A DNA stretch of 64,000 nucleotides from assembly GCA_964633875.1 (NCBI GenBank), contig CAZWKL010000001.1, positions 117,530 through 181,529 of the forward strand. The letters are read 5' to 3'. Numbering within the stretch: position 1 is the stretch's first letter; each line of letters starts with the position of its first letter. The translations under genes were made by a program, and so were the position numbers. The notes below the pieces were generated by a model. It saw only the letters and a program-made list of their open reading frames with translations. It did no database searches and had not been told where the DNA came from. Of this stretch, positions 1,712 to 49,934 are shown piece by piece. This DNA comes from an uncultured Pseudomonadales bacterium. Its GTDB lineage: Bacteria > Patescibacteriota > Microgenomatia > UBA1400 > PJMF01.

Positions 1712-3313
1712 TTATTTTGCTACTTCCTGATGTCTGGTTTCGCGGATAACAGTGACGGTGACCGTGCCAGGATAAGTGACTTTGTTTTTAATCTCGTCAC
1801 GGATTTTCATGCTCAGCACTTTCACGTCGGCGTCTTTGGAACCTTCTGGCTCAAGCAACACCCGCACTTCGCGGCCGGCCTGAATAGCGTAGGCCTGCTT
1901 AACTGAATCATGAGCGGTGGCAATTTCTTCCAACTGTTCCAGACGCTCTACGTACTCTTCGTAGTTTTCGTAGCGAGCGCCCGGTCTGGCTCCGGAAATA
2001 GCGTCGGCGATATAAACCACCATTTGCTCTGGTCCGGTAAATGGCTCGTCTTCGTGGTGTTGGGCGATGGCATCAATTACCGGCTGGGGCAGGTTGTAGC
2101 GCTTGGCTATTTTTACCCCCAGCTCAACGTGGCTGCCTTCTTCCTCGTCGGAAACTTTACCGATATCATGCAGCAAACAACCCAGTTTGACGGTGTTCAC
2201 ATCTATACCAAGTTCATGCGCCAGCTTAATGCCGATTTTAGTCTCTTCCAAGGTGTGGGCGATGAGATTTTGACCGTAGGAGAACCGGTACTTGAACTTG
2301 CCCAGCATCTTAACCAGATCTTTGGGCAAGTTGTAAACATTGACCTCGTGGCAGAGTTTTTTGCCGGCCTCAAAAGTAAGTTTATCAATTTCTTTCTCGA
2401 CCTTATCCACCACCTCTTCGATCCTTGAAGGCTGAATTCTGCCGTCTTTGATTAACCGTTCCAAAGAAATTCGGGCAATTTCACGCCGGACCGGGTCAAA
2501 ACAAGAAAGCCTCACTTCGGTGGGGGACATATCCAGATCCACATCCACCCCAGTGCGTCTTTCAAAAGCATTGATATTACGCCCGCTTTTACCAATAATC
2601 TTGCCTTTGGCATCTTCTGAAGGCAGTTGAACGACGGACACGGTGTATTCCGGCACGTAGTCGGTGGCGCCGTGCTTCATGGCGTCGATCAGGATTTCCT
2701 TGACCCGCTCGTCGGCTTCAGATTCGGCCTCTTCTTCTTTTTGACGGATGAACTGAGCCATTTCTTTGGCCAGTTTTTTCTCCAGATTTTCGAAAAGAGC
2801 TTCTTTGGCCTCTTCTTTGGTAAGTTCGGCCACTTTTTCCAGGCGTTCAATTACATCCTGTCTGCGCTTAGCCAGATCAGCCTTAAGTTTTTCCACCTCT
2901 TTTCTGTCAGTTTCCAACTGGCTTTCCTTGCGGTCCATTTGGCTGAGGCGGTCATCAATTCTGTCCAATTTTTCGTTGAGGTTGCGCTGTTGTTCTTCCA
3001 ATTGCTTGGCCAACTCGCGGCTTTCGTTTTCCGCTTTACTGCGAATGGAAAGGGCTTCCGACTTTGCCTCCACCAAAACCTCTCGGGCTTTGGCCTCGGC
3101 ATCACGAACAATCTCGCGGCTTTTCTGCAACTCTTCATTAGTGGGTTGGAGCTGAGCGGGTTGGTTGCTTGGTTGAGTCGAAGCAGCTTTTTTTGCTGGT
3201 CGTTGTTTGACCCGAAAGCCCGCGTTGGCAGGCGATTTTATTTTTTGACTTTTTTGCTTGGATGACTCTTCTTGAGTGCCAAAAAGTGTAGATAGATTTC
3301 CAAAGAATGACAT
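1712..3313 (-). CDS. rny: Ribonuclease Y
   Basis: Coiled-coil N-terminal half, a KH domain (GKIIGKSGRNI), and an HD domain (LLHDIGK...). The reverse complement of the plus-strand sequence reads aggagaaatATG, a good SD before the start codon. The N-terminus lacks the usual TM helix. Confidence 0.9.
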   Translation of the reverse strand: MSFFGNLSTLFGTQEESSKQKSQKIKSPANAGFRVKQRPAKKAASTQPSNQPAQLQPTNEELQKSREIVRDAEAKAREVLVEAKSEALSIRSKAENESRELAKQLEEQQRNLNEKLDRIDDRLSQMDRKESQLETDRKEVEKLKADLAKRRQDVIERLEKVAELTKEEAKEALFENLEKKLAKEMAQFIRQKEEEAESEADERVKEILIDAMKHGATDYVPEYTVSVVQLPSEDAKGKIIGKSGRNINAFERRTGVDVDLDMSPTEVRLSCFDPVRREIARISLERLIKDGRIQPSRIEEVVDKVEKEIDKLTFEAGKKLCHEVNVYNLPKDLVKMLGKFKYRFSYGQNLIAHTLEETKIGIKLAHELGIDVNTVKLGCLLHDIGKVSDEEEGSHVELGVKIAKRYNLPQPVIDAIAQHHEDEPFTGPEQMVVYIADAISGARPGARYENYEEYVERLEQLEEIATAHDSVKQAYAIQAGREVRVLLEPEGSKDADVKVLSMKIRDEIKNKVTYPGTVTVTVIRETRHQEVAK

Positions 3314-3620
3314 ATTTCTCCTTTATATTGCATAGTACAGATTCATAGCTAACAATGCTGTGATGGAGAAAGTAAGGCTAGAAAAGAAGACGTACGGCAC
3401 TTGTGGCCGTTTTATAGGTCTATATCAGGCAAATTAAGAACTTGTGTAGGCTTAATCTATAAATATGCATGTTATCGCTAATTAGTCTTGCTTGTATTAC
3501 CAATTACTTTCTAAAATCCTGCCAGGTTTGGCCTGGTAAGAATGTGCTCAATCACAGCACATATTACATTGCATTGTACTCTTTTAAGAGCAAATTTGCA
3601 ACGTATTTTGTGCTATAAGG

Positions 3621-4682
3621 CTAATTTGCCTTATCTTTGGCTTGGTTCTTTTTTGTTTCTTTGGCTTTACCACTGACGGCAGCGCGGATTTGCTGATCAA
3701 CTTTTTTCATGAATTCAGGATTTTCTGCCAAGTATGTTTTAGCGGCTTCTCGGCCCTGTGCCAAGACTTCACTCTCATACTTGTAGAAACTGCCCGCTTT
3801 TTCAATGATCCCAAGCTGGGAGCCGAGGTCAATGATGTCTCCGGTGAGAGAAATGCCGTTTTCATCCATGTCGAACTCAGCTTCTTTGAACGGAGGGGCA
3901 ATTTTGTTTTTCTTAACTTTGACTCGATGCCGGCTGCCCACCACTTGGTCACCTTCTTGAATATTACCAATTTTTCTAATATCCAGTCTTTGAGAAGCGT
4001 AGAACTTCAGGGCATTGCCGCCGGTGGTAGTTTCCGGACTGCCGAACATAACGCCAATTTTATGACGAATTTGATTGGTGAAGATCACCAGCGTGTTGGT
4101 TTTGCCAATAGTGCCGGTGAGTTTTCTCATGGCTTGAGACATCAGGCGGGCTTGCATGCCCATGGGTGCATCGCCCATTTCACCTTCAATCTCGGCTTTA
4201 GGGACCAGGGCTGCCACTGAGTCGATTACTACCAAGCTAACCCCGCCAGAGCGAATCAGAGTTTCCGTAATTTCCAGAGCCTGTTCGCCGTAATCCGGCT
4301 GGGAAATCAGCAGTTCGTCAAGATTGACCCCAATGGCTTTCGCCCGGGCCGGATCTAGAGCGTGTTCAACATCCACGAAAGCAGCCACGCCGCCTTCTTT
4401 TTGCACATTGGCAATCGCGTGCAGACAGAGAGTGGTTTTGCCGGAAGCTTCCGGACCATATATCTCCACAATTCTGCCTTTGGGATAGCCGCCGATGCCT
4501 AGAGCAATATCCAGCGTCAAGGAGCCGCTGGAAATTGACGGAACTTTAGGAGCGCTCTTCATGGATTCTCCTAATTTCATAATCGAGCCTTCACCGAATT
4601 CTTTTTCAATTTGCTGCATAGCTATATTGACTGCTTGCAGTTTACCAGTTGCTGCTGTAGGTGCGGTGGGTTTCTTGGCCAT
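3621..4682 (-). CDS. recA: Recombinase RecA
   Basis: Walker [10 protein letters not shown], conserved RecA core ([18 protein letters not shown]), 353 aa. Confidence 0.95.
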
Positions 4683-4751
4683 AAATCTCCTTATGCTTGT
4701 TTTGGGTTTATTTAGTATTACTATACTAACTAAACCATATTTATTAAATAA

Positions 4752-4777
4752 TTGCTACTGATATTTGTGTGTATAAT
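4752..4777 (+). promoter_or_regulatory. Candidate sigma70-like promoter (TTGCTA -35, 14-nt spacer, TATAAT -10) upstream of tRNA-Pro
   Basis: -35-like ttgcta at 4752-4757 and an exact tataat at 4772-4777, about 60 nt upstream of the tRNA. The spacer is shorter than optimal. Confidence 0.3.
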
Positions 4778-4838
4778 ATGTGCTTGAGCTTGCATCTAGT
4801 GTAGTAATTTGGTGAGAGTTGTGAGGTTTAACAAAAAA

Positions 4839-4912
4839 CGGGCTGTAGCTCAGATGGCTAGAGTGCGCGCCTGGGGGGCGCGAGGTCGCAGGTTCGAGCC
4901 CTGTCAGCCCGA
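4839..4912 (+). tRNA. tRNA-Pro (anticodon GGG)
   Basis: Manual cloverleaf fold. Acceptor CGGGCTG/CAGCCCG, D-stem GCTC/GAGT, anticodon stem CGCGC/GCGCG with loop CUGGGGG (anticodon GGG, G37), T-stem GCAGG/CCTGT, T-loop TTCGAGC. No CCA is encoded. Confidence 0.85.
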
Positions 4913-4940
4913 CAAAAGCTGGAGTTTTGTCAGGAGTACC

Positions 4941-5609
4941 ATGAAAACCATTATTTTCTCCGACACCCACCTCACCAGGAGGTTTAATTTGCGTAAGTTT
5001 ATGTTCTTGGCCAACTTGATCAAGGACGCTGATCGGGTAGTGATCAATGGCGATTTTTGGGACAATACTTACACGGATTTTGATGGCTTTATCAATTCTA
5101 AGTGGAAGCTACTCTTTCCTATTCTCAAGAGCAAGGAAACCATTTACCTGTATGGCAATCATGACCGGGACTGGCAGGTTGATGACCGAGCGCGCCTATT
5201 TTCAGATTATCAAGGTTATGAATATCAAATTAATAATGGTTATTATGAGTTGCTCATCACTCATGGTCATACCATTAGAGAAGGCCTGGAAAGACTCAAT
5301 AGGCTTTATGGCATCAGAAGATTTAAAAAACTCGGCCAATTTATTTTTGAAATAATTGAGTGGTTGGGAGTCAAATTGGTTCGCCGGTTTGGCAAAAACA
5401 TTTTCCCCCATCGCTTTTTAGATAATCGAGCCATTAAGGCTCACGCTATCACTTTACCTCCCGGACAATATTTGGTCTGCGGCCATACTCATTTGGCTTT
5501 TTTCAAGCCCGGAAATCAGTATATTAACACCGGGTCAATCAGGTTTGGTCACGCTCACTACCTTGAGTTAACTGGTAAAACTTTAAAACTCCATCGCTGG
5601 CGCTATTAA
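4941..5609 (+). CDS. Metallophosphoesterase (calcineurin-like phosphoesterase family)
   Basis: Motifs DTHL, GDFWD, GNHD and GHTH. The track ORF starts at 4809 inside the tRNA, so the start was moved to the ATG at 4941, which is preceded by aggag. Confidence 0.7.
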   Translation: MKTIIFSDTHLTRRFNLRKFMFLANLIKDADRVVINGDFWDNTYTDFDGFINSKWKLLFPILKSKETIYLYGNHDRDWQVDDRARLFSDYQGYEYQINNGYYELLITHGHTIREGLERLNRLYGIRRFKKLGQFIFEIIEWLGVKLVRRFGKNIFPHRFLDNRAIKAHAITLPPGQYLVCGHTHLAFFKPGNQYINTGSIRFGHAHYLELTGKTLKLHRWRY

Positions 5610-46263: not shown

Positions 46264-47961
46264 ATGAAGACTTGGAACTTACTCCACCAAGACACTCCCC
46301 AAACCATTGATGAAGTGATTAAAATTTTGCTCAAGAACCGGGGTATTGAAAATATTGATTCGTTTTTGAACGTCAAACACCCCGCGGATTTAACTTTGGC
46401 AGAAGTGGGCATCAACCAGCAGCAGATGAAAAAGGCTGTTAAAAGAATTATCAAAGCCCAAAAAACCGGCGAAAAAGTGCTGATTTTTGGCGATTATGAC
46501 GCTGATGGCATTTGTGCCACTGCTATTCTTTGGCTGACTCTTCACCACCTAAAAATCAATGCTTGGCCCTTTATTCCTCACCGTGGCAAGCATGGCTACG
46601 GTGTTTCTGATGCAGCCCTGGATGGAATTTTAAGCGAAAAAGAAAAACCGGCATTGATTATTACCGTAGACAATGGCATTGTTGCCCACAAATCTCTGGC
46701 CAGGTTGTTGGAGCAAGAAAAAATTGATGTCATTGTCACCGACCACCATCAACCGGAAACTGATAATGACAAGCCCGTATTTCCGCCCGCCACGGCCGTA
46801 GTCCATACTACTCAACTTTGCGGCGCAACGGTATCATGGCTGCTCTCAAGAGAACTTGATAAAGACTTGGCTATGGAACAGTTGGATTTGGCTGGTATTG
46901 CCACTATTGCCGACCAGGTTTCGCTAATTGGCGCTAACAGAAGTTTTGCCAAATTTGGTTTGGAGGCTTTAGCCAAGACAGAGAAAATAGGCTTGAATCA
47001 ACTCTTCCAGGCGGCGACAATCGAGAAAAAAAATATTTCCAGCGGCACGGTTGGTTTTAGTCTGGTGCCCAGAATTAATGCCATGGGTAGGCTTAAACAT
47101 GGTCTGGATGCTCTCAGACTTTTGTGTACCAACAGTCACAGTCAAGCCACCAACTTAGTCAAAATTTTAATGGAGACCAACATTGAGCGCCAAGACCTCA
47201 CCAACGAGCTGCTGGCAGACGCGATTTTGCAGGCAGAAAAACAAGCCAAGGAGCACCTCATTATTGTTTCTTCCCCCAACTATCATGAAGGAGTGATCGG
47301 CTTGATTGCCGGCCGGCTAATGGAAAAATATCACAAACCCGCCATCGCTTTGAGCCTTGATCACAACACCGCCAAAGCTTCCGCCAGAAGCGTTCCGGGC
47401 GTCAATATCACTGAACTGCTCCGGCAAGTTCAAGCCGATTTAATTGATGTCGGTGGCCATCCTTTAGCCGCTGGCTTTAGTGTAGAAGTAAAAAAACTGC
47501 CTCAGGTTAAGCAAAAACTAGCAGAAATTGCTTTGGTGGAAATTCCCGCTGAACTACTCCAACCAACCCTTGACATCGAACTGGAATTACCCTGGGAGTT
47601 GGTGGGCGAGGAACTAGTTGCCGCCACCGAAAAACTGGCTCCTTTTGGTCAAGACAACCCCAGACCATTTTTTTTGCTCAGCCACCTCAAGATTCTCAAT
47701 GTCATGAGTATGGGTAAGGAAAATAATCATTTGAAAATGGTGGTGGGCCAGCCGGAGGCTGCCAATCCAGCTACCAGCACTAAAACCCTCAATATTTTAG
47801 CCTGGCGCAGGGGACATTTGGCAAAAGATCTTCAGGAAGGCCAAATAGTATCGTTGGTGGGATCGTTGGAACTCAATCACTGGAACGGCAAAACTAGCGT
47901 ACAGATGGTGTTGAAAGAGTTAGCGGTTAATCAACCTTTTCCACCAATTGACGGGAATTAA
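46264..47961 (+). CDS. recJ: Single-stranded-DNA-specific exonuclease RecJ
   Basis: DHH motifs (IFGDYDADGIC, VTDHHQP), DHHA1 region (GGHPLAAG) and a C-terminal OB region. The start was set at the internal ATG 46264 to avoid overlap with the divergent cca start. Confidence 0.85.
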   Translation: MKTWNLLHQDTPQTIDEVIKILLKNRGIENIDSFLNVKHPADLTLAEVGINQQQMKKAVKRIIKAQKTGEKVLIFGDYDADGICATAILWLTLHHLKINAWPFIPHRGKHGYGVSDAALDGILSEKEKPALIITVDNGIVAHKSLARLLEQEKIDVIVTDHHQPETDNDKPVFPPATAVVHTTQLCGATVSWLLSRELDKDLAMEQLDLAGIATIADQVSLIGANRSFAKFGLEALAKTEKIGLNQLFQAATIEKKNISSGTVGFSLVPRINAMGRLKHGLDALRLLCTNSHSQATNLVKILMETNIERQDLTNELLADAILQAEKQAKEHLIIVSSPNYHEGVIGLIAGRLMEKYHKPAIALSLDHNTAKASARSVPGVNITELLRQVQADLIDVGGHPLAAGFSVEVKKLPQVKQKLAEIALVEIPAELLQPTLDIELELPWELVGEELVAATEKLAPFGQDNPRPFFLLSHLKILNVMSMGKENNHLKMVVGQPEAANPATSTKTLNILAWRRGHLAKDLQEGQIVSLVGSLELNHWNGKTSVQMVLKELAVNQPFPPIDGN

Positions 47962-49459
47962 TCCCTGACTCCCTTTGACCCTTGGTAAAGAAATAATTTT
48001 GAAGCCTGAGTCTTTGAATTTCTAGTTGTTCTTCTATTGACCTGGAAGTTTCAACATCAGCCTGATTTATATTGAAGATGTCATAATGCTCAAACAATAT
48101 GCTTGCAACATCCCACATTCTCCTTTGTCCAAATAATGAGTGTGCAAGCCCAGATTCAAAACCACCATCCACAGAATATTTATAATCCAAATAACGTTGA
48201 TAATTAAAGATTAAAATTTCAATTACTTTACCCTGATGTTTGCCTTCATGAAATCTTACTTTCATCCTTTTCCATTTAACTTCTGCGCTTTGTCCCCGTC
48301 CGTTCCCAACCTCATCATCTGGAGTAACTGAAACAACACCCTCTTTAAAACTTTGAAGAATTATGGTCTCAATTTCATTGTATAGCTCTAGCTGATCTTC
48401 CTCGCTAAAAGTTATAAATTTTATTCCAGCATAGTCTTCAATATCTTCTACTGCTATTCTGCTTTCGCTCCCTCTTTGTAAAGCTTTAGCAATCATTTTT
48501 GCCACAGTCGAGGTCGGCGTTTTCTCCCTAGGTTGGGTCGTGAACTTTTTTCCACAATTTGAAGTGCGGACTTGCATGGTTTCTTTTTTCCAATATCTAT
48601 CGCTAGGAGGTTGATCTATAGGTTCTTGACAAGTAAAAGACAGACATGTGTTCGTCTCATAGCTGTGCAATGAGTAAATATCTAAAGTATTCGTTTCACC
48701 AATCTTTTCCTCGGGGTCATAAAGATGCTTTTCAAATACTGCCTCCAAATCTTTTATTAGGCTTCTATATGAACCATTGCCCATTTTTTCTTCAATTTGT
48801 AATAAAAGTAAGACAATGCCTAGTTGTCGTTGCAATTCGTATTTAAATCTATTGCTAACATCATGGTTCCCAAGCAAGTATCTTCCAACTGCTAAAATTC
48901 CTCCTGCAGGGTACTCCGTTTGATTCAAAAGCCCAAGATTCTCCTCTTTTCCAGGATAAGCTGTATCGCGGATCTCATCAATGATCCTGTTCGCTGATTC
49001 CATAAGTCCCTCTAGGTGGTTGTTTAGAGCGGTATAGTCGCTCCCTGCTTGGTATTTCTTTAAGTGAGGAAAACACTGACAGAGAAAATTAAAAAAAGCT
49101 CTTTCCAGCTCAACTTTTTTAAGAATCTCTATACGTGAAGCCTCTCTCTCTGATCGTTGACTTTCTCTTTCCAATTTTTCCGGGTTTTCAGACAAATTTA
49201 TGTTGCCTTCGCTACCGTTTTGCGATCGTGTTTTTGCCCTAAGTTGCCAAGCTTTTAACTTGTGAGCTGCAGCTTGCTCTTTGGATGGCCATTCCTGAGA
49301 CAAATACAGTTTCATCAATTGATAAATTTTATCTTCATCAGCGAACATCGCGCGGATAAATTCTACAGCTGCCGGACCTAGCACGGAATCAAAAACCTCA
49401 ATTTTAGGCTTGAACGGCTCATGCGTGCTGGGGGGTTGTTCAATAGTCTTACTTAACAT
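47927..49459 (-). CDS. Hypothetical protein with C-terminal RelA/SpoT-like (small-alarmone-synthetase/toxSAS-like) nucleotidyltransferase signature
   Basis: The block REKTPTSTVAKMIAKALQRGSESRIAVEDIEDYAGIKFITF...VIEILIF...YLDYKY aligns by eye to the RelQ/RelA synth motifs (R-K-SPxS-IxxKxxRK, D-x-AG-I-R-h-h, EIQIRT, H/YxxYK). The N-terminal 330 aa are unknown. The gene is ~34% GC against ~47% in its neighbours. It is certain as a CDS; the function is tentative. Confidence 0.45.
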   Translation of the reverse strand: MLSKTIEQPPSTHEPFKPKIEVFDSVLGPAAVEFIRAMFADEDKIYQLMKLYLSQEWPSKEQAAAHKLKAWQLRAKTRSQNGSEGNINLSENPEKLERESQRSEREASRIEILKKVELERAFFNFLCQCFPHLKKYQAGSDYTALNNHLEGLMESANRIIDEIRDTAYPGKEENLGLLNQTEYPAGGILAVGRYLLGNHDVSNRFKYELQRQLGIVLLLLQIEEKMGNGSYRSLIKDLEAVFEKHLYDPEEKIGETNTLDIYSLHSYETNTCLSFTCQEPIDQPPSDRYWKKETMQVRTSNCGKKFTTQPREKTPTSTVAKMIAKALQRGSESRIAVEDIEDYAGIKFITFSEEDQLELYNEIETIILQSFKEGVVSVTPDDEVGNGRGQSAEVKWKRMKVRFHEGKHQGKVIEILIFNYQRYLDYKYSVDGGFESGLAHSLFGQRRMWDVASILFEHYDIFNINQADVETSRSIEEQLEIQRLRLQNYFFTKGQRESGINSRQLVEKVD

Positions 49460-49483
49460 TTCAGTTTATCGTGCAGCTAAGCA

Positions 49484-49513
49484 CTAAAAAAAGCCCTCCT
49501 GAGGGGCTTTTTT
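49484..49513. terminator. Bidirectional intrinsic terminator (A7-GC-rich hairpin-T6)
   Basis: The sequence aaaaaaagccctcctgaggggcttttttc forms a GC stem flanked by A-tract and T-tract. It lies between the start of the minus-strand 510-aa gene and the aspS leader. Confidence 0.6.
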
Positions 49514-49649
49514 CACAAAGGTACACCCCTCAGTTACCTAATACTAAGCGTAAAAATAACTCGAGAGAAATGCCTTAATTTGTGCATTTTTGATTAAATT
49601 CTACTTTTAATTACTATGTTTAGTCGTCGTCGGCAAGGCCATACGTTAT

Positions 49650-49899
49650 GTAAGCAAATTGTATCAAGATTTAGCTGATTGTCAACCAGGCTAAGATTAG
49701 TTAAAATAAAGTTATAATACAAAAGCTTTTTGTTTGGGTGACGCCAAACAGCCACTTGGCAAGCGCTCAGGGTCGCAACTGAGCCGGGTAAGCCCGTGAC
49801 AGCAGGAATGAAGGCAGCCTCCAGCTGTATTGAGAGGTGGCACCGCTTTTACTCGAAAGCCCTCTTAGAACCATCGCGGTGGTTTTAAGAGGGCTTTTT
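49650..49899 (+). promoter_or_regulatory. T-box riboswitch-like leader of aspS (T-box motif, antiterminator/terminator, GAC-A specifier candidate)
   Basis: T-box-like tgagaggtggcaccgc at 49831-49846 (consensus AGGGUGGNACCGCG). Downstream gcggtgg can pair with it as an antiterminator. Mutually exclusive perfect 11-bp terminator aagccctctta/taagagggctt plus T5 at 49857-49899. Candidate specifier GAC followed by A at 49798-49801. The 5' boundary is uncertain. Confidence 0.5.
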
Positions 49900-49934
49900 G
49901 GCTTTTAATTGATACTTAAACGAAGAAAGGAAAC

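Follow-up and report, generated by a model that had tools for sequence, protein, structure and literature searches.

The DNA analysed here, a stretch of 64,000 nucleotides from contig CAZWKL010000001.1 (assembly GCA_964633875.1) that is called the window below, carries between recJ and aspS an unannotated gene whose product we name protein X. The 510-aa minus-strand open reading frame (ORF) proposed earlier from the letters alone (the sequence-only reading) is present, and it stands without operon partners, as had been stated: it is monocistronic, overlaps the convergent recJ by 35 nt and is divergent from aspS. The neighbours of X across the examined loci are aspS, recJ, cca, and the genes of an S11 peptidase and SecDF. 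In this study, we found that the C-terminal half of X is a highly divergent RelA/SpoT (RSH) synthetase-type nucleotidyltransferase (NTase) domain lying outside Pfam recognition, encoded behind a 5' leader with a candidate attenuator.

The GC content of X is 38.7%, with 33% at the third codon positions (GC3), while recJ has 45.9%, aspS 50.7% and the whole window 44.4%. Among 1.5-kb stretches of the window, X has the lowest GC (just 0.6% of the 1533-nt windows are equally low), and its GC3 of 0.33 compares with 0.48-0.55 in the neighbours. The AT-rich dip noted earlier is real as a window minimum, but the measured value indicates that the previous figure of about 34% overstates it. The strong terminator taken for a boundary of the gene was also found, as a GC hairpin with A/T runs; however, it precedes the X start by 27 nt, so that it is a 5' leader element and not a 3' boundary. 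No antitoxin adjoins the gene, in agreement with the sequence-only reading, but an upstream ORF (uORF) of 17 codons resembling a leader peptide does. Antisense inside X, at window 48101-48149 (+), a nadA-riboswitch-like match scored 23.5 bits, below the gathering score of 37.5 (E=0.024); it is probably due to chance.

Family X and its RelA/SpoT-type domain

A word-indexed search of 5.8 billion clusters returned only X and protein P0002, which is 46% identical to it, and the same type of search using the family profile added one protein. An exhaustive hidden Markov model (HMM) search with X and P0002 as the query detected 172 representatives with E<=1e-3, of which 72 had E<=1e-10. Among 1.8 billion representatives, the relative nearest to X is P0002, its syntenic orthologue. 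The family members are mostly 420-450 aa long, and the matched part of X covers approximately residues 150-490. The entries are unannotated, and those with a named source are listed as 'hypothetical protein' in Candidatus Pacebacteria/Paceibacterota metagenome-assembled genomes; the family is confined to one clade of the ultra-small Patescibacteria, of the Microgenomates/'Pacebacteria' type. Searches of NCBIfam, PHROGs and the PDB (phmmer) with X gave no usable matches.

An AlphaFold2 model of X built from the alignment of 78 family sequences reached a pLDDT of 89.3 and a pTM of 0.87, while a version from two sequences gave a pLDDT of 40 and was unusable. The strands at residues 257-266, 272-276, 288-300 and 305-312 were all modelled at pLDDT >95. 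When the model was compared with the PDB by Foldseek, the best 19 chains were all from the RSH family, and phage RelA/SpoT proteins came on top among viral structures; the three structure searches point to an RSH-type alpha/beta NTase fold. Sequence identity to X was 14-20% for RSH proteins and 6-10% for other NTases.

The same relationship was recovered by profile alignment. The RSH profile was made from B. subtilis YjbM, YjbM relatives, and the synthetase domains of E. coli RelA and SpoT; the YjbM sequence agreed with 5DED at every residue. Aligned to this profile by hhalign, the family domain scored 35.7 (P=7.1e-5) over 128 columns with five motifs in register, while 30 column-shuffled templates reached at most 23.0 and reversed ones about 12-13. 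The four motif matches that had been made by eye were placed in register with Syn1, Syn2, Syn4 and Syn5. The RelA/SpoT-type NTase fold claimed for the C-terminal part was thus borne out by the profile alignment, above all controls, and by structure prediction, with the catalytic Asp and Glu invariant.

The sequence-only reading had placed a novel domain of 330 aa in front of the NTase domain. Known homology is indeed lacking there, since the family consensus of residues ~140-310 had no Pfam match and residues 141-250 had no significant hhalign match to RSH. However, this part is not one domain: the family as a whole conserves residues ~140-310, which continue into the NTase sheet in the model, whereas residues 1-140 are variable, with an alignment occupancy of 0.02-0.11 at residues 70-110. 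The resulting architecture is unlike that of long RSH enzymes, small alarmone synthetases (SAS) and CapRel, the last as had been said.

Residue counts in the 78-member alignment indicated which parts of the active site are retained. Only four columns are invariant (78/78), namely K313, K321, D342 and E414; R298 (77/78), R398 (75/78) and H440 (74/78) are near-invariant, as are N270, G254 and H265. The basic Syn1 motif of RSH (RxKxxxSxxxK), to which the phosphates of ATP bind, is represented with the RSH spacing by R311 (67/78), K313, S317 (40/78) and K321, and the Syn2 motif (DxxGxR) by D342 and G345 (67/78), which align to the DIAGLR of YjbM. Syn3 (GY[RQ]SxH) corresponds to R-G-Q-S, with a gap opposite the Tyr in hhalign. 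From Syn4 (ExQxRT) E414 alone is kept: in this strand the Q is replaced by I/M/V/L and found in 4/78, Y/F occupy the R position, and T/D/S/N the position of the T. Syn5 (LNYKY) appears as Y-L-N/D-x-x-Y.

The D342 residue is equivalent to the Mg2+-coordinating D90 of FaRel2 (bioRxiv 10.1101/2021.04.30.441581). Judged from these residues, the donor machinery for ATP/Mg2+ looks intact, with the basic R311/K313/K321 and the pair D342 and E414. The acceptor pocket, which has lost the Tyr and the Q/R/T residues, looks rebuilt, with the family-specific R298, R398, H440, N270 and H265 present instead. Position 396 is aromatic (F/W/Y in 69/78), and this residue might stand in for the Tyr.

Several results weigh against this assignment and against an enzymatic activity of X. 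No sequence-to-profile method was significant for RSH in X. In the Pfam profile search that had been recommended, RelA_SpoT (PF04607) matched residues 311-365 of X with 14 bits (E=0.063), below the gathering threshold of 27 bits; the best of the 78 family members reached E=0.0027 (1/78), the weak matches falling on the same motif. The family consensus found no RSH and nothing significant in Pfam, the PDB profile search with the family found no RSH, and the family HMM found neither RelA nor SpoT of E. coli. The hhalign probability was just 63%, with a template alignment of low diversity. Moreover, the acceptor-stacking Tyr of G-Y-[RQ]-S-x-H (the equivalent of FaRel2 Y128) is absent from the X family alignment. 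SAS and toxSAS enzymes, FaRel2 included, cannot do without this Tyr (bioRxiv 10.1101/2021.04.30.441581), and its loss means that pyrophosphokinase activity is not assured.

The loss of the RSH acceptor-site signatures would also fit a Pol-beta-superfamily NTase that moves a nucleoside monophosphate, such as an RNA-tailing enzyme, a cyclic-oligonucleotide synthase or an antibiotic-modifying enzyme with a drug-sensing attenuator. Leader-peptide attenuators are typical of resistance genes that are induced by ribosome-targeting antibiotics, which would agree with the last of these. However, Foldseek ranked RSH on top in two libraries, the identity to RSH exceeded that to other NTases, and hhalign gave the RSH-specific motif order, including Syn1 and Syn5. 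As metal ligands, X also has one Asp and one Glu as in RSH, and its family has no invariant second Asp beside D342, unlike the DxD of Pol-beta enzymes. We consider such a transferase quite unlikely and retain the RSH-type assignment. The positions of the protein regions and of the leader elements are collected in Table 1.

Table 1. Features of the X gene and its 5' leader, in window positions
Feature	Position	Strand	Remarks
Protein X CDS	47927..49459	(-)	ORF list; 510 aa + stop; unannotated Patescibacteria-restricted family
Variable N-terminus, aa 1-140	49040..49459	(-)	Alignment; charged helical insert at ~aa 60-130 in X and P0002 only
Family-conserved helical region, aa 141-250	48710..49039	(-)	E208, R211, 'ELxRQ' motif; without detectable homologue
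Family-conserved beta-strand region before NTase core, aa 251-310	48530..48709	(-)	G254, H265, N270, K291, R298 near-invariant
Divergent RSH-type NTase core, aa 311-460	48080..48529	(-)	R311-x-K313...K321 (Syn1), D342-x-x-G345 (Syn2), R388-G-Q-S391 (degenerate Syn3 without Tyr), E414 (Syn4), Y423-L-D-Y-K-Y428 (Syn5), A439-H440
Strong sigma-70-like promoter match TTGACA-16-TACAAT with TG, toward X	49658..49685	(-)	Consensus scan 11/12; kept in L001 and L008
-10-like TAGAAT	49598..49603	(-)	10 nt upstream of uORF ATG; read from sequence
uORF, candidate leader peptide MHKLRHFSRVIFTLSIR and stop	49534..49587	(-)	17 codons; stop abuts segment 2
Segment 1, CTCTCGAG, within uORF	49560..49567	(-)	
Segment 2, CTGAGGGG, candidate anti-terminator 5' strand	49526..49533	(-)	Pairs with CCCCTCAG, terminator 5' arm
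Terminator hairpin and T7 run (segments 3 and 4)	49486..49514	(-)	27 nt upstream of X start

Residence of X and divergence of its alleles

Thirteen X loci were compared, the window included, and in 11 of them the gene order is aspS-X-recJ-cca. The carriers of this order are the window, the locus of P0002 in GCA_964515115.1, those of P0003, P0004, P0012, P0037, P0052, P0157 and P0011, and the loci L019 and L034, which were found via aspS. The slot-sharing members are 24-49% identical to X, or 24-30% and less when P0002 is set aside, and their loci span aspS identities of 58-91%. In the subclade of P0007 and P0008 (L013/L014 and L102), X is located upstream of mutS-mutL instead. Among 80 aspS-anchored Patescibacteria genomes, recJ abuts aspS without X in many (e.g. 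L025, L045, L083, L091). Consequently, X must have entered an older cca-recJ-aspS array within a single subclade, where it has remained. The flanks of X hold no meaningful repeats, no nearby tRNA, and no integrase or mobility genes. X is a long-resident lineage-specific gene and not a recent import.

The sequence-only reading had regarded X as an AT-rich island of a single gene that could have been acquired horizontally. A recent acquisition would agree with the composition of X, the lowest in GC and GC3 among its neighbours, with the recJ-aspS junctions that lack it, which mean that X was once inserted, and with a divergence confined to the ORF (see below), which would fit a foreign allele having been imported. 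Composition is, however, the only island property found at the locus. Orthologues occupy the same slot across deep aspS divergence, the nearest relative of X is one of them, the supposed terminal boundary belongs to the 5' leader, and a GC below that of all or most neighbours recurs in L001, L008, L011 and L015, although not in L099 and L100. We regard a recent island as highly improbable. It follows that any transfer was an ancient insertion followed by allele exchange within the clade.

The recJ|aspS junction is occupied differently in some other Patescibacteria. Unrelated ORFs of ~505-510 aa lie there on the strand opposite to X in L069 (3461-4990 (+)) and L074 (3354-4868 (+)), and L058 has a low-GC gap of 1.9 kb (3129-5001). 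Insertion of variable genes may recur at this junction.

The comparison of the window with locus L001 indicated that the rapid divergence is restricted to X. The X proteins are 46% identical and the neighbours 84-91%. By blastn, 82-84% identity was observed on both flanks and lost between 47822 and 49481, a gap covering the X ORF together with the final ~45 codons of recJ, which overlap it. The 3' end of recJ (47822-47961 (+)) is as divergent as X, while the remaining recJ is 84% identical, so that the divergent block reaches slightly past the X ORF. In the leader and intergenic region the identity is 88.8%. The dN of X was 0.45 against 0.05-0.07 in the neighbours, which is about 8-fold faster. 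X is also the most divergent gene in every syntenic pair; between L099 and L100, for example, it is 30% identical and its neighbours are 61-82% identical.

As the synonymous sites of X are saturated and dS by NG86/YN00 is undefined, fourfold-degenerate codons of the same amino acid were compared instead. In X, 57/79 of these sites differ (72%), while the five neighbours differ at 372/859 (43%; Fisher p=8.5e-7). Within runs of >=5 identical residues the values were 76% and 41%, respectively (Fisher p=0.005). Such a difference cannot arise from relaxed constraint on the protein alone. A protein identical to X was found in at least four independent samples, which indicates that there is no hypermutation on a short timescale. 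A diversity-generating retroelement or short-term hypermutation was ruled out, as the divergence extends across the whole ORF and identical proteins occur in several independent samples. The two X alleles appear older than their flanks, owing to recombinational replacement or to long maintenance of alleles, and the pattern suggests that old alleles were exchanged by recombination within the clade. The alternative would be a mutation rate raised solely within the X ORF. Against these conclusions it must be said that the fourfold-site excess comes from one informative pair, window-L001, because synonymous sites are saturated in all other pairs.

This evolutionary pattern would also agree with a toxSAS or defence reading, in which X is a toxic effector of the toxSAS/CapRel type or a fused toxin-sensor, silenced by the attenuator and the N-terminal domain, in an arms race with phages or hosts. 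The greatest divergence in every syntenic pair and the saturated synonymous sites are typical of conflict loci, and expression would be gated by a terminator. On the other hand, a search of the examined loci found no antitoxin gene, mobility gene or defence match, and PADLOC and PHROGs had no match beyond noise. One PADLOC match, to Cas11e (E=9.4e-4, residues 52-159), was judged compositional noise; it falls on the charged helical insert present in X and P0002 only. The neighbours are housekeeping genes, the slot is kept across deep divergence, the protein is identical in several independent samples, and the Tyr needed to stack a nucleotide or tRNA-CCA acceptor is missing. The defence-island protein suggested by the sequence-only reading found no support in the PADLOC and PHROG matches or in the neighbourhood, and we consider a toxSAS-type effector unlikely compared with a resident RSH-type enzyme.

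A candidate attenuator in the 5' leader

The X leader has the layout of a putative trp-type leader-peptide attenuator. In the window, the terminator alone folds at -12.6 kcal/mol and the alternative fold without the 3' arm at -15.0 kcal/mol; for the 107-nt leader, the state in which segments 1:2 and 3:4 pair was calculated at -34.6 kcal/mol (z=-4.25). The layout is present in seven syntenic leaders (window, L001, L008, L011, L015, L099, L100). In these, a hairpin followed by a T-run (-10 to -14 kcal/mol) precedes the X ATG by 10-35 nt, and an upstream strand is able to pair with the 5' arm of the terminator (-14 to -18 kcal/mol). Since a promoter cannot fit into the 10-35 nt between the T-run and the ATG, X can be transcribed only by read-through of the terminator.

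The position of the uORF is a further shared property. The uORFs have 15-18 codons and an ATG start, and their stop lies -3..+5 nt from segment 2 in 7/7 syntenic leaders and in L102; in shuffled leaders, this placement occurred in 2.4-4.2% of the trials per locus. A -10-like hexamer is found 6-13 nt upstream of each uORF ATG, which implies a leaderless or near-leaderless transcript. L102, which is in the mutS context, has the same leader layout, and L013 fits in part, with a GTG start. The whole layout of terminator, anti-terminator and uORF was observed in 8/13 loci and the terminator in 8-9/13. The hairpin and T-run have different stem sequences in L001, L008, L011, L015, L099, L100, L102 and L013. 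The competing pairing occurs in seven loci besides the window, with the same topology and different sequences in L008, L011, L015, L099, L100 and L102; conservation of the anti-terminator was judged from folds of each locus, without a formal covariation statistic. The leader peptide sequences are poorly conserved between loci.

A ribosome that finishes the uORF would cover segment 2, so that the terminator forms and X is off. A ribosome stalled within the uORF would leave segment 2 free, the anti-terminator would form, and X would be made. If the leader acts in this way, X would be an enzyme induced by translation stress.

Some observations argue against an attenuator of this kind. The element is missing from L019 and L034, L101 has a 17-codon uORF and no terminator, and L103 has a hairpin and no uORF. 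In addition, the uORFs show no Shine-Dalgarno sequence, and none of the eight peptides has a run of regulatory codons.

The absence of the unit at some X loci would agree with another explanation, that the stretch from promoter to terminator is an independent small gene for the 17-aa peptide or a small RNA, with X expressed constitutively by leaky read-through. The unit is complete in that it contains a promoter, a short ORF and a terminator. However, the mutually exclusive anti-terminator helix and the uORF stop at its 5' strand survive full sequence turnover in eight loci, and neither is needed by an independent gene. The unit also travels with X into the mutS context, and its peptides show little conservation. 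An independent gene is in our opinion improbable, and the candidate attenuator is retained as the reading of the leader.

Another short ORF in the leader, of 11 aa (MALPTTTKHSN and stop, 49642-49607 (-)), has three consecutive Thr codons and lies between the TTGACA/TACAAT promoter and the 17-codon uORF. Its end 73 nt ahead of the anti-terminator and its lack of conservation in L001, where MIFGPADGG and a stop are found, ruled it out as the leader peptide, and it is probably not functional. An Rfam scan of the leader and intergenic region identified no riboswitch or leader family, with Thr_leader and Phe_leader sub-threshold at E 0.8-4.6.

The leader of the divergent aspS gene, at 49740-49900 (+), has a conserved structure of its own, with a T-box-like AGAGGTGGCACCGC at ~49833-49847 and a 20-bp terminator hairpin at 49855-49898. 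These elements are kept in L001, L008, L011 and L015. As Rfam returned no T-box match up to E<=10, the assignment as a T-box is not confirmed.

Proposed function and comparison with known systems

We favour the reading that X is a long-resident RSH-type enzyme with a rebuilt acceptor site, which is attenuated by its leader and induced by ribosome stalling, and we give this reading as a whole a probability of about 55%. Sequence and model suggest that X is most likely an active enzyme that would move pyrophosphate from ATP onto an acceptor's 3'-OH. This acceptor, for instance a nucleotide or the end of an RNA/tRNA, would be bound unlike GDP/GTP in the classical alarmone synthetases. A bolder proposal is that the RSH-derived enzyme yields something different from (p)ppGpp or adds pyrophosphate to an RNA end, that stalling directly induces it through a leaderless leader-peptide attenuator, making it an RNA-gated minimal counterpart of the RelA stringent response, and that conflict-type selection keeps its alleles ancient and divergent. 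We put this forward as a tentative and rather doubtful extension of the favoured reading.

RSH enzymes are central to bacterial stress signalling and include toxins, and the catalogue based on profile HMMs misses family X entirely. X is classed here as an RSH-fold family beyond current profiles, with a new architecture, a new acceptor site and, probably, a new mode of regulation. If X is active, the RSH fold would have an extra branch in Patescibacteria, one whose acceptor pocket differs. The coupling of such an enzyme to a stalling attenuator suggests an alternative link between translation status and an RSH-type enzyme that has no RelA ribosome-binding domains. With synonymous saturation confined to one ORF while the remainder of the locus is 82-89% identical, X clearly exemplifies the turnover of alleles in a fixed slot in uncultivable organisms, and this turnover may mark a conflict interface. 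Our literature search found nothing on family X, on RSH/ppGpp in Patescibacteria/CPR, or on SAS genes controlled by attenuators.

Among the known systems, the SAS (SAS1/YjbM/RelQ, SAS2/YwaC/RelP) and the long RSH enzymes (Rel, RelA, SpoT) are the best structural matches of X. They have the same order of motifs (Syn1, Syn2 DxxG, the Syn3 of which GQS is a remnant in X, the Syn4 Glu and an LNYKY-like Syn5), and X likewise has one invariant Asp and one invariant Glu. Like the SAS, X does not have the C-terminal domains by which long RSH sense the ribosome. SAS enzymes are mainly regulated at the transcription level. X differs from both groups by ~300 extra N-terminal residues of unknown fold class, by its score below the Pfam threshold, and by the missing stacking Tyr and Q/R/T of ExQxRT. 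Its range of one clade, its candidate leader-peptide attenuator and an evolution ~8-fold faster than that of its neighbours are further differences.

The toxSAS (FaRel, FaRel2, PhRel, PhRel2, CapRel) and the T6SS effector Tas1 have been reported to use the RSH fold on acceptors beyond GDP/GTP, namely ATP or the tRNA CCA end (PMC7229694; bioRxiv 10.1101/2021.04.30.441581). Rapid divergence is shared between these proteins and X. On the other hand, X has neither a bicistronic antitoxin nor a recognisable fused antitoxin domain, its extra domain is N-terminal and not C-terminal, and it does not have the Tyr that is essential in FaRel2. It also lies in a housekeeping neighbourhood, without association with phages, defence islands or a T6SS.

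The leader of X can be compared with the trp/his/thr/phe leaders and the antibiotic-inducible leaders. It differs from them in having no run of regulatory codons, a leaderless-looking uORF without a Shine-Dalgarno sequence and no Rfam family, and in that it would regulate an RSH-like gene, for which the literature search found nothing alike. It shares with them a promoter-proximal short ORF and the four-segment pairing (1:2 / 2:3 / 3:4) that ends in an intrinsic terminator before the gene.

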